Assembly (NCBI RefSeq): GCF_041886205.1
Contig: NZ_CP169029.1
Direction: 5' to 3' (one strand)
Origin: Escherichia coli
GTDB lineage: Bacteria; Pseudomonadota; Gammaproteobacteria; Enterobacterales; Enterobacteriaceae
DNA: 64,000 bases
This document shows positions 26,149 through 34,905 of the stretch, piece after piece (within the stretch, counting starts at the first letter, position 1; each line of letters opens with the position of its first letter). Under the pieces are notes generated by a model. That model saw nothing but the letters and a program-made list of their open reading frames with translations. It was not told where the DNA came from and searched no databases. The position numbers and the translations under genes were made by a program.

Positions 26149-27237
26149 ATGCCTCACAATCCTATCCGCGTGGTCGTCGGCCCGGCTAACTACTTTTCAC
26201 ATCCAGGAAGTTTCAATCACCTGCACGATTTTTTCACTGATGAACAGCTTTCTCGCGCGGTGTGGATCTACGGCGAACGCGCCATTGCTGCGGCGCAAAC
26301 CAAACTTCCGCCAGCGTTTGAACTGCCAGGGGCAAAGCATATTTTGTTTCGCGGTCATTGCAGCGAAAGCGATGTACAACAACTGGCGGCTGAGTCCGGT
26401 GACGATCGCAGCGTGGTGATTGGCGTCGGCGGCGGCGCACTGCTCGACACCGCGAAAGCCCTCGCCCGCCGTCTCGGTCTGCCATTTGTTGCCGCTCCGA
26501 CGATCGCCGCCACCTGCGCCGCCTGGACACCGCTCTCCGTCTGGTATAACGATGCCGGACAGGCCCTGCATTATGAGATTTTCGACGACGCCAATTTTAT
26601 GGTGCTGGTGGAACCAGAGATTATCCTCAATGCGCCGCAACAATATCTGCTGGCGGGGATCGGTGACACGCTGGCGAAATGGTATGAAGCGGTGGTGCTG
26701 GCTCCGCAACCAGAAACATTGCCGCTAACCGTGCGGCTGGGGATCAATAATGCGCAGGCCATTCGCGACGTCTTGTTAAACAGTAGCGAACAGGCGCTTG
26801 CCGATCAGCAAAATCAGCAGTTAACGCAATCATTTTGCGATGTGGTGGATGCGATTATCGCCGGAGGTGGAATGGTCGGTGGTCTGGGCGATCGTTTTAC
26901 TCGCGTTGCAGCGGCTCATGCCGTGCATAACGGTCTGACTGTGCTGCCGCAAACCGAGAAATTTCTCCACGGCACCAAAGTCGCTTATGGCATTCTGGTA
27001 CAAAGCGCCTTGCTGGGTCAGGATGATGTGCTGACGCAATTAACCGGGGCGTATCAGCGTTTTCATCTGCCGACCACGCTGGCGGAGCTGGAAGTGGATA
27101 TCAATAATCAGGCGGAGATCGACAAAGTGATTGCCCACACCTTGCGCCCGGTGGAGTCCATTCATTACCTGCCAGTCACGCTGACACCAGATACGTTGCG
27201 TGCAGCGTTCGAAAAAGTGGAATCGTTTAAAGCCTGA
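26149..27237 (+). CDS. ybdH: iron-containing alcohol dehydrogenase family protein YbdH (hydroxycarboxylate dehydrogenase)
   Basis: 362-aa ORF MPHNPIRVVVGPANYFSHPGSFNHL... Confidence 0.92.
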   Translation: MPHNPIRVVVGPANYFSHPGSFNHLHDFFTDEQLSRAVWIYGERAIAAAQTKLPPAFELPGAKHILFRGHCSESDVQQLAAESGDDRSVVIGVGGGALLDTAKALARRLGLPFVAAPTIAATCAAWTPLSVWYNDAGQALHYEIFDDANFMVLVEPEIILNAPQQYLLAGIGDTLAKWYEAVVLAPQPETLPLTVRLGINNAQAIRDVLLNSSEQALADQQNQQLTQSFCDVVDAIIAGGGMVGGLGDRFTRVAAAHAVHNGLTVLPQTEKFLHGTKVAYGILVQSALLGQDDVLTQLTGAYQRFHLPTTLAELEVDINNQAEIDKVIAHTLRPVESIHYLPVTLTPDTLRAAFEKVESFKA

Positions 27238-27246
27238 CGTGCAAAT

Positions 27247-27444
27247 TTAGCAGCAGCGCGCGCCGCCTTTTCCACCGTAGCGCGCGTCCTGCCGCTCACG
27301 GAAAAACTCTTCGTAGGTCATCGGCGTTTGATCGGGATGGTTTACCCGCATATGTTCGACATAGTTGTCGTAATCAGGCATACCAATCATCAGCTTCGCC
27401 GCCTGACCTAAATATTTTCCGGCTTTTGCCAGTGAATCAAACAT
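27247..27444 (-). CDS. ybdD: small protein YbdD (DUF466), cotranscribed with cstA
   Basis: 65-aa [34 protein letters not shown]... Confidence 0.9.
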
Positions 27445-27477
27445 TAATACCTCCGGTAATCAGGTTGCCAGGAGAGT

Positions 27478-27511
27478 GCCGGATGCGGCGTGAACGCCTT
27501 ATCCGGCCTAC
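27478..27511. repeat. REP (repetitive extragenic palindrome) element in cstA-ybdD spacer
   Basis: GCCGGATGCGGCGTGAACGCCTTATCCGGCCTAC, canonical REP sequence. Confidence 0.85.
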
Positions 27512-27530
27512 AAATGCTATCAACGTGCTC

Positions 27531-27610
27531 GGTCAGTCCCCTCGCCCCACCGGGGAGAGGGTTAGGGTGAGGGGAAACCCTCGGCGCCATGCCAACATTC
27601 GCCAACATTC
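27531..27610. repeat. GC-rich imperfect palindrome followed by a 10-bp direct tandem repeat (GCCAACATTC x2)
   Basis: tcccctcgccccaccggggagagggttagggtgagggg... then gccaacattcgccaacattc at 27591-27610. Confidence 0.6.
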
Positions 27611-27625
27611 CCCCTCACTCTGACT

Positions 27626-29731
27626 TTAGTGCGCGCCTTTTGCCTGCGCCACGATCTCCTCGACATTTTCCGGCATTGGCTCATACGGCGTTTCTTTCGC
27701 CGTTGGCTTCGGCTCTTTCAATGCCGCCAGTGCCGTCTTAATCGAGAACAGCGCCAGAACCACCACGACCACCATAAAGAAGATGGTTAACCCGGCATCC
27801 AGACGGTTGTTGAACACCAGTTGCGCCAGCTGTGACTCAGTATACTGCGACGGAATATTGCCGCTGTCGATCATTGCCTGGAACTTATTAGCAATGGCCA
27901 GGAAGCCGACTTTCGCATCCGGGCTAAACGCTTTCTGCCAGCCTGCGGTCAGAGTACAAATCAGCAGCCAGGCCGTTGGTACCAGCGCCACCCAGGCGTA
28001 ACGTTGACGTTTCATCTTGAACAACACCACGGCACAGAGCATCAACGCCATCCCTGCCAGCATCTGGTTGGCAATACCAAACAGCGGCCACAGAGTGTTA
28101 ATACCGCCCAGCGGATCGACCACACCCTGATGGAGGAAGTAGCCCCACGCCAGTACGCACAGCGCCGTTGCCAGCAGGTTAGCAGGCAGTGAATCGGTCC
28201 GTTTCAGGCCCGGAGACACCACGCCCAGCAGATCCTGCAACATAAAGCGCGCAGCACGCGTACCTGCATCCACCGCCGTCAGAATAAACAGTGCTTCAAA
28301 CAAAATGGCGAAGTGATACCAGAACGCCACATCCATCATGCCGCCCAGCGCGCCGTGCAGAATGTAGGCCATCCCCACCGCCAGCGTCGGCGCACCGCCC
28401 GCACGGGAAATGATCGACTGTTCACCCACTTCGCTGGCAATCTGGTTTAGCGTATCCGGGGTAATCGCAAAGCCCCAGCTACTCACCACCTGCGCGGCAG
28501 AAGCGACCACATCCGCCGTCCCTGCCGGAGCCAGCACCGCCATCGGGCTGTTCATGGCGAAGTACACACCCGGATCGATGATACAGGCGGAAACCAGCGC
28601 CATAATCGCTACGAAGGATTCCATCAACATCCCGCCGTAGCCGATAAAGCACGCCTGCCCTTCGTTCGCCAGCATCTTCGGCGTGGTGCCGGAAGAGATC
28701 AGCGCATGGAAGCCAGACACCGCGCCACAGGCGATGGTGATAAACAGGAACGGGAACAGGTTACCGGTCCATACCGGGCCAGTGCCATCGACAAATTTGG
28801 TCAGCGCAGGCATGGTCAGCGTCGGGCGCATAATCAAAATGCCTACCGCCAGACCGACGATAGTCCCGATTTTCAGGAAGGTAGAAAGGTAGTCACGCGG
28901 AGCCAGCAGCAACCACACCGGCAGCACCGCCGCCACAAAACCGTAACCCACCAGCATCCAGGTCAGCTGCACGCCGGTAAAGTCAAAGTACGGTGCCCAG
29001 GTCGGGCTTTCTGCCACCCAGCCGCCAGAGATAATGGCGAAAATCAGGAATACCAGACCGATGACCGACACTTCACCAATACGCCCCGGACGCAGATAGC
29101 GCAGGTAGATCCCCATAAACAGCGCCAGCGGAATGGTGAACGCAACGGTATACGTTCCCCACGGGCTATGAGTCAGGGCTTTCACCACGATCATCGCCAA
29201 CACAGCAAGGATAATGACCATGATCATAAAGCAGGCCACCAGCGCTATCACCCCGGCGGTTGGCCCCATCTCTTCTTTGACCAGCTCACCCAGCGAACGA
29301 CCGTCACGGCGCGTAGAAACAAACAGCACCATGAAATCCTGCACCGCACCGGCGAGAACCACCCCGGCGAGCAGCCAGATCATCCCCGGCAGGTAACCCA
29401 TTTGCGCTGCCAGCACCGGCCCAACCAGCGGACCTGCTCCGGCAATGGCCGCAAAATGGTGACCGAACAGCACTTTCTTGTCCGTCGGCACATAGTCCAG
29501 CCCGTCGTTATGGCGCACCGCTGGCGTCATACGCGTCGGGTCAACCGCCAGCACATTTTTGGCGATATACAGCCCATAAAAACGGTAAGCGATCAGATAG
29601 ATACAGACCGACGCCACCACAATCCACAGCGCGTTGATCTGTTCCCCACGATTTAAAGCAATGTATCCCAGAGCAAATGCTCCCATTACAGAGAGCACTG
29701 TCCAGACGAGGTATTTCCCTGATTTGTTCAT
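27626..29731 (-). CDS. cstA: carbon starvation protein A (peptide/pyruvate transporter) CstA
   Basis: 701-aa polytopic membrane ORF MNKSGKYLVWTVLSVMGAFALGYIAL... Confidence 0.95.
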   Translation of the reverse strand: MNKSGKYLVWTVLSVMGAFALGYIALNRGEQINALWIVVASVCIYLIAYRFYGLYIAKNVLAVDPTRMTPAVRHNDGLDYVPTDKKVLFGHHFAAIAGAGPLVGPVLAAQMGYLPGMIWLLAGVVLAGAVQDFMVLFVSTRRDGRSLGELVKEEMGPTAGVIALVACFMIMVIILAVLAMIVVKALTHSPWGTYTVAFTIPLALFMGIYLRYLRPGRIGEVSVIGLVFLIFAIISGGWVAESPTWAPYFDFTGVQLTWMLVGYGFVAAVLPVWLLLAPRDYLSTFLKIGTIVGLAVGILIMRPTLTMPALTKFVDGTGPVWTGNLFPFLFITIACGAVSGFHALISSGTTPKMLANEGQACFIGYGGMLMESFVAIMALVSACIIDPGVYFAMNSPMAVLAPAGTADVVASAAQVVSSWGFAITPDTLNQIASEVGEQSIISRAGGAPTLAVGMAYILHGALGGMMDVAFWYHFAILFEALFILTAVDAGTRAARFMLQDLLGVVSPGLKRTDSLPANLLATALCVLAWGYFLHQGVVDPLGGINTLWPLFGIANQMLAGMALMLCAVVLFKMKRQRYAWVALVPTAWLLICTLTAGWQKAFSPDAKVGFLAIANKFQAMIDSGNIPSQYTESQLAQLVFNNRLDAGLTIFFMVVVVVLALFSIKTALAALKEPKPTAKETPYEPMPENVEEIVAQAKGAH

Positions 29732-34882: not shown

Positions 34883-34905
34883 ATGAAAATGAGAAGCATT
34901 AACTT
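34883..34905. promoter_or_regulatory. Fur box in fepB promoter region
   Basis: atgaaaatgagaagcattaac, partial iron-box match upstream of fepB. Confidence 0.5.

Follow-up and report, generated by a model that had tools for sequence, protein, structure and literature searches.

The spacer between cstA and ybdD in Escherichia coli is filled with repeats, and the locus raises the question of what these repeats are and whether they act on the cstA message. In the window, by which we mean the whole 64,000-nt stretch of DNA that was analysed, both genes lie on the - strand and are separated by 181 nt (27445-27625; features are collected in Table 1), and the spacer with its flanks matches strains GF4-3 and ET201 at 100% identity and K-12 at 96%. 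CstA-dependent pyruvate uptake needs YbdD (PMC5847655). Naming the repeat is useful because the RefSeq annotation shows no feature within the cstA-ybdD spacer. The original prediction was of a composite repeat consisting of a REP unit, a GC-rich palindromic element and a tandem 10-mer; the population comparison reported here covers 5,426 complete E. coli genomes. The joint explanation that best accounts for the block, and that we regard as likely, is a BoxC copy with a 10-bp duplication inside its flank and the remnant of a partner element, whose counterpart in the mRNA would form a domain serving as a 3′-end barrier.

Three small open reading frames over the block (27426-27623 on the + strand, 27444-27608 and 27562-27684 on the - strand) were considered as genes and dismissed as spurious, since they cross dispersed repeats in a spacer that varies by indels. 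Many database versions of YbdD carry N-terminal extensions into the repeat-filled spacer (71-110 aa, compared with 65 aa), and these entries are probably start-codon annotation artefacts.

Table 1. Features of the cstA-ybdD region, in window coordinates
Feature	Position	Strand	Basis or remark
ybdD	27247-27444	-	65-aa partner of CstA
REP, one unit, GCCGGATGCGGCGTGAACGCCTTATCCGGCCTAC	27478-27511		palindrome arms
BoxC 5′ flank, GCTATCAACGTGCTCGGTCAGTC	27516-27538	+	fits consensus of 14 copies
Equivalent of K-12 RNA 3′ end	27528	-	K-12 632098 (+), mapped onto the window
Y-shaped RNA domain, cstA 3′ region	27532-27624	-	predicted fold
BoxC / TMECO core, type A, one mismatched triplet	27539-27574	+	exact consensus match
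BoxC 3′ flank / pair linker, ending in first 10-mer GCCAACATTC (27591-27600)	27575-27600	+	linker likeness
Second 10-mer, GCCAACATTC	27601-27610	+	local tandem duplication, judged from sequence
Putative remnant G-block of inverted partner BoxC, CCCCTCACTCTGACT (- strand AGTCAGAGTGAGGGG)	27611-27625	-	directly after cstA stop
cstA	27626-29731	-	701 aa, pyruvate/peptide transporter

Identity of the GC-rich element

On the strength of its sequence, the GC-rich string GTCCCCTCGCCCCACCGGGGAGAGGGTTAGGGTGAGGGG at 27536-27574 is almost certainly a copy of the repeat family described under the names BoxC, PIT, TMECO and HPG1. The published TMECO consensus, CCCTCNCCC-N3-6-GGGNGAGGG-N3-GGGNGAGGG (Holder et al., 2015; PMC4666352), is matched exactly at 27539-27573 by regular expression, and the core is made up of CCCTCGCCC (27539-47), CACCG, GGGAGAGGG (27553-61), TTA, GGGTGAGGG (27565-73) and a final G (27574). 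According to the same source, TMECO is the BoxC of the 1990s and the PIT element of Maher's group (Hoyne, Maher 2000), and the same family was reached by way of G-quadruplex prediction, as HPG1, by Kaplan et al. (2016; PMC5100583). The 23-mer GGGGAGAGGGTTAGGGTGAGGGG, the G-rich part of the element, did not occur in any of 100 shuffled versions of the window.

The window core differs by one loop base from no. 23 of the 23 strict TMECO copies tabulated for K-12 (PMC4666352), and it belongs to the commonest K-12 class, 'A mm', with a G mismatch in the first block. It has in common with the family the TTA second loop of type A, the conserved flanks, a strictly intergenic position (here between the cstA stop at 27626 and the ybdD start at 27444), multi-copy dispersal, a tendency to occur in inverted pairs and a location in variable spacers, whereas its first loop, CACCG, is absent among the 23 tabulated K-12 copies. 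The K-12 orthologue is HPGQ 19 (HPG1, midpoint 632058), which lies at a distance of 51 nt from cstA and of 108 nt from ybdD (PMC5100583, Table 1). Its third block is mutated from G to A (GGGTGAGAG), whereas that of the window copy is canonical, and because of this mutation the K-12 cstA copy is missing from Table 1 of Holder et al. Both the BoxC family and the copy at the cstA locus are already published, and the finding is real but ordinary.

The original suggestion of membership in a less familiar repeat family is borne out by the exact core, by the matching flanks and by a search with the 96-nt block, which had matches in 5418 of the 5426 E. coli genomes, with a median of 15 and a maximum of 27 places per genome; the genome-wide search that had been proposed thus shows that the element is not unique. 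Its description as an imperfect GC-rich palindrome is correct as far as it goes, but leaves out the third G-rich block and the flanks, which are conserved. In K-12, TMECO no. 9 adjoins fabI (= envM), which we take to be the locus of the first BoxC description. Bacteria very distant from E. coli contain the core pattern as well, in line with the reports of Holder et al. and Kaplan et al. Among the matches listed were Polaromonas, Xanthomonas, Contendobacter, alphaproteobacterial MAGs and one Bacteroidaceae MAG, and the copies listed there were often many, near-identical and arranged in inverted pairs.

Flanks, tandem 10-mer and a possible partner remnant

Alignment of the flanks of 14 type-A K-12 copies, fetched by their published coordinates, showed that the family extends ~20 nt upstream of the core with the consensus CAAAAAnGnGCnCGGTCGGTC, where the window has ATCAACGTGCTCGGTCAGTC, and ~25 nt downstream (GAACAG-GCCnGCAC...), a pattern that the 3′ flank of the window copy (GAAACC..GCC) fits. 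The BoxC originally described, of ~56 bp, was also longer than the core. The stretch at 27575-27600 resembles both the 3′ flanks of single copies and the linker, gaacag..gcactggtgcgaacatta, that leads from the A core to the inverted B core in K-12 pairs.

The direct repeat of GCCAACATTC at 27591-27610 is perfect, as had been noted originally (TRF period 10, 2.0 copies, 100% match), and the 10-mer is found in the window only at these two adjacent places, with 0.32 occurrences expected anywhere in 64 kb. It does not, as had been thought, abut the cstA stop, from which it is separated by 15 nt (27611-27625); it is the whole block that does so. In the five K-12 inverted pairs, the A core is followed by a linker ending in ...gcgaacatta and by an inverted B core starting with CCCTCACCCC, and in the window the A core is followed by gaaaccctcggcgccat-GCCAACATTC-GCCAACATTC and then by CCCCTCACTCTGAC. 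Comparison of these layouts therefore places the first 10-mer at the gcNaacatt position at the end of the linker, and the second is, to judge from the sequence, a local duplication produced by slippage inside the BoxC 3′ flank.

The 15 nt between the repeat and cstA occupy the place where the inverted type-B core starts in the K-12 pairs, are 82% complementary to 27561-27577 and are invariant in all nine aligned alleles. They look like the leftover of an inverted partner element, the remainder of which would fall in cstA. A search for a second full core on the opposite strand at ~30-60 nt, which would make a complete inverted pair, gave no second regular-expression match, and the window copy differs from the published family in that the partner is cut to a 15-nt block and in the 10-bp tandem duplication of its 3′ flank. 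New points, though small ones, are the explanation of the 10-mer, the inverted-partner remnant, the allele series and the coincidence of a mapped RNA 3′ end with the base of the predicted fold (see below).

REP unit and spacer alleles

The REP unit is present exactly where it was originally placed, with arms (27478-27491 and 27494-27507) that are 86% complementary, and it has the marks of REP membership, being an imperfect palindrome of ~35 bp that ends in GGCCTAC and occurs in many copies, the measure for the family being hundreds. With the spacer as query, partial matches covering the REP part were found at a median of at least 39 places per E. coli genome, and 2635 records contained at least 40 matching pieces. 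A search of Rfam at permissive E-values gave sub-threshold matches only, the best being naRNA4, which is REP-derived, on the REP unit (39.2 bits, compared with a threshold of 59.5 bits), and the rest being at chance level. At several unrelated loci, REP or BIME sequences lie directly beside BoxC (cstA-ybdD, fimH-gntP, frlR-yhfS, pstB-pstA and, in strain 8178, zntA-tusA); either the two repeats share a preference for certain spacers, or one of them draws in the other.

Alignment of nine allele classes showed that the spacer is a modular, polymorphic patchwork, in which REP, BoxC and the 10-mer vary independently. The REP module is present, absent (WP8, ECONIH1) or missing with another small hairpin followed by AUUUGUAUU in its place (S14, AR0077); the BoxC core is present or internally deleted (32A22, S14, AR0077); and the 10-mer occurs in two copies, one copy (APEC102026, 32A22; a form estimated at ~320 genomes) or none (S14, AR0077). 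At least 80% of the block is held by 4070 of the 5426 genomes (~75%), leaving about 25% of E. coli genomes without the full element, and at least 80% of the 679-nt locus by 4230; block and locus coverage together lead to an estimate of ~22% of genomes with the short S14-type spacer and ~3% with intermediate forms. Because they keep the BoxC 5′ flank, together with a degenerate third block, the S14-type alleles are best read as internal-deletion derivatives.

The small hairpin of the REP-less alleles S14 and AR0077, GCCCUCUUAAUUCAGGAGGGC followed by AUUUGUAUU, is seen also in two E. coli-level sequences (95-98% identity) and at one further YbdD homologue locus; on the transcribed strand, upstream of ybdD, it is terminator-like, and its sequence resembles BoxC blocks 1-2. 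These two E. coli-level sequences, reached through YbdD homologues, had been tried as an outgroup and were discarded because of their identity.

Outside E. coli, the cstA-ybdD spacer of Enterobacter asburiae contains a REP-like unit and BoxC blocks 1-2 only, and that of a related genome contains a REP remnant and a full type-B core in the orientation opposite to that of the window copy (sense). The different BoxC type in these Enterobacter-like spacers points to repeated and independent colonisation of the spacer.

Filled and empty sites and the DNA-level interpretation

At fepB-entC, the window (34899-34901) cleanly lacks a 183-bp block of K-12 (624541-624723) that contains an inverted BoxC pair, is bordered by TAA on both sides and has halves forming a long imperfect palindrome; the difference looks like a filled and an empty site. 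At tauD-hemB, the spacer is 67 nt shorter in ~30% of the sampled E. coli rows, and in the short form BoxC and its surroundings are swapped for an unrelated hairpin, GCCGGGTTGGATAACCCGGC, and are not cleanly excised. The alleles at zntA-tusA differ only by the neighbouring BIME. With regard to a MITE-like origin, the evidence thus comprises the one clean site with TAA flanks at fepB-entC, the replacement at tauD-hemB and the cstA alleles formed by internal deletion.

This variability can also be explained at the level of DNA, if the G-rich strand, when single-stranded, forms a triplex or a G-quadruplex that stalls polymerases or promotes recombination, making the element an indel hot spot with no role as RNA. 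Such structures are suggested by the four G-tracts of the core (GGGG-AGA-GGG-TTA-GGG-TGA-GGGG) and its three triplex blocks, and in vitro, by CD and NMR, near-identical oligonucleotides form a triplex (PMC4666352) and switch between a G-quadruplex and a hairpin (PMC5100583). TMECO loci exceed control loci in variability (PMC4666352), with which the variability of the cstA spacer (at least nine alleles and a 10-bp slippage event) agrees, as does the fepB-entC pair missing from the window. However, a triplex was not detected by DMS footprinting in vivo, earlier in vivo tests were without effect (PMC4666352), and the variability might be explained equally well by relaxed constraint in repeat-filled spacers. 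The DNA-level explanation, which is compatible with an RNA barrier, also leaves the RNA 3′ end described below unexplained, and we consider it unlikely, though well worth keeping in mind.

Predicted RNA domain

Because cstA is read from the - strand, its mRNA carries the C-rich complement of the BoxC core. The structure prediction that had been proposed for the block yielded a stable domain on this transcribed strand: RNA covering 27528-27625 (-) has a minimum free energy (MFE) of -52.3 kcal/mol and a z of -3.6, and the same Y-shaped fold is predicted within the whole spacer. The predicted domain is held together by a closing stem, GUCAG/CUGAC (27620-27624/27532-27536), that starts 2 nt past the UAA. 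In hairpin A (27607-27618/27567-27578), the remnant block would be paired with the third BoxC block and the 10-mers would lie in the tolerant apical part, and in hairpin B (27539-27561), BoxC blocks 1 and 2 would be paired with each other. Hairpin A is kept in all nine alleles, including those without BoxC. The K-12 version of the domain, with a z of -0.7, folds no better than shuffles, and compensatory base changes were not demonstrated for the fold.

A mapped RNA 3′ end next to the predicted domain

Term-seq of K-12 places an RNA 3′ end at 632098 (+), listed as 'orphan' with 1686 reads (Adams et al., 2021; PMC7815308, sheet LB 2.0) and detected only in stationary-phase LB. This position is a G 4 nt past the closing stem, 99 nt after the cstA stop and 84 nt before ybdD. 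The end comes from one dataset and one condition, with a low read count, and the other Term-seq tables consulted had no cstA entry. Contrary to a sequence unique in the genome and devoid of stable structure and transcript boundary, which would have spoken against the original prediction, the element is dispersed, the predicted structure is stable and the 3′-end mapping that had been proposed is answered by this published end. It had also been stated that the block lies inside a cstA-ybdD transcript; this is not established, as RegulonDB, quoted by Kaplan et al. (PMC5100583), lists cstA and ybdD as separate single-gene units.

The formation of a 3′ end is not general to BoxC, because it is lacking at other loci: no Term-seq end lies just after the element at the adk, pstA and zntA BoxC loci of K-12, and at ilvC/ppiC the ends lie at the genes' own intrinsic terminator, with none just after BoxC. 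A strong Term-seq end (K-12 624680 (-), 103,563 reads, LB at OD 0.4; PMC7815308) is found just before the fepB-entC BoxC pair. It belongs to a putative fepB leader and lies on the opposite side of the element from that in the cstA case.

A GC-rich stem-loop right after a stop codon with an RNA 3′ end just past it might be taken for the intrinsic (Rho-independent) terminator of cstA. This explanation fails because there is no U-tract, the stem being followed by CCGAGCACGUUGAUAGC. Moreover, a terminator scan of 27100-27900 found no sites, reporter tests of PIT elements detected no terminator activity (PMC4666352), and a promoter consensus scan found no promoter-like site in the spacer for ybdD, which CstA needs. 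We therefore regard an intrinsic terminator as very improbable.

A more serious alternative is that the block was left behind by a selfish or formerly mobile repeat and is neutral, copies of BoxC and REP accumulating where a spacer tolerates them, and that the 3′ end is incidental, as it might be to any stable hairpin. The presence/absence polymorphism of each module, the occurrence of REP beside BoxC at several other loci, the Enterobacter-like spacer with the other BoxC type in opposite orientation, the one clean filled/empty site at fepB-entC and the lack of the full element in about a quarter of E. coli would all agree with such an origin. However, hairpin A is kept right after the stop codon in all alleles examined, no transposase or mobility mechanism is known, matches of the 96-nt block on plasmids number 29/75,300, and the 'empty' allele at tauD-hemB is a replacement with no clean excision. 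Neutral debris is a possible explanation, but one towards which we do not lean.

Proposed role as a 3′-end barrier

The explanation that we favour in its place is a barrier in the mRNA, as summarized in the following model. In the cstA mRNA, the C-rich complement of the core would pair both internally and with the remnant block, forming the very stable Y-shaped domain. Transcription would first end further downstream, in a diffuse or Rho-dependent manner, and the domain would then act like a REP stabiliser and block 3′-to-5′ exonucleases. This would leave an mRNA of cstA alone whose 3′ end is defined, and ybdD message, made from read-through, might be less abundant than that of cstA.

The model follows the finding that stem-loops shield RNA ends from PNPase and RNase II after downstream, Rho-dependent termination (Dar and Sorek, PMC6061677). 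A REP-like barrier is favoured because the 3′ end just past the stem matches the signature described by Dar and Sorek, and the absence of a U-tract and of a terminator consensus fits stem-loop-protected, Rho-dependent ends of this kind (PMC6061677). By analogy, the cstA end would resemble such protected ends in having a stable structure, no U-tract and an end a few nt past the stem. The Rho termination regions found in the Adams dataset do not include the cstA site, where the only one listed is antisense (631994). We regard a barrier effect at the cstA locus as a tentative proposal that falls slightly short of being probable. The original suggestion that the block could affect mRNA stability is plausible in that the stable fold and the Term-seq end lend it some support.

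REP/BIME stabilisers, such as that of malE-malF (Newbury et al., 1987, cited in PMC6061677), are likewise transcribed palindromic repeats between co-oriented genes, and likewise have a stable stem-loop without a U-tract and a steady-state 3′ end just downstream, although they differ from BoxC in sequence family. Neither promoter nor terminator activity was found for BoxC/PIT elements (Hoyne and Maher, summarised in PMC4666352). The full element is dispensable, because alleles without BoxC keep only hairpin A and ybdD is still intact in them. We know of no RAYT-type transposase or binding protein for BoxC. Liang, Rudd and Deutscher (2015) are reported to have shown that terminating ribosomes can be stalled by REPs lying no more than ~15 nt from a stop codon, and by analogy a stalling of ribosomes at the cstA stop is conceivable, the structure being predicted to start 2 nt past it.

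Significance

As things stand, the importance of the finding is small and consists in the correct name given to an unannotated repeat. It is an improbable extension of the barrier model that BoxC copies transcribed in the C-rich orientation are REP-like modules for 3′ ends and mRNA stability, and that the copy at cstA determines how much cstA message there is relative to ybdD message in stationary phase. The locus could be a handy test case for BoxC, offering natural alleles with and without each module, gene products that cooperate and a mapped 3′ end at the base of the fold. If the extension were true, the spacer alleles would lead to heritable differences in CstA-YbdD pyruvate uptake among E. 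coli lineages, and a BoxC element would for the first time have a function ascribed to it.
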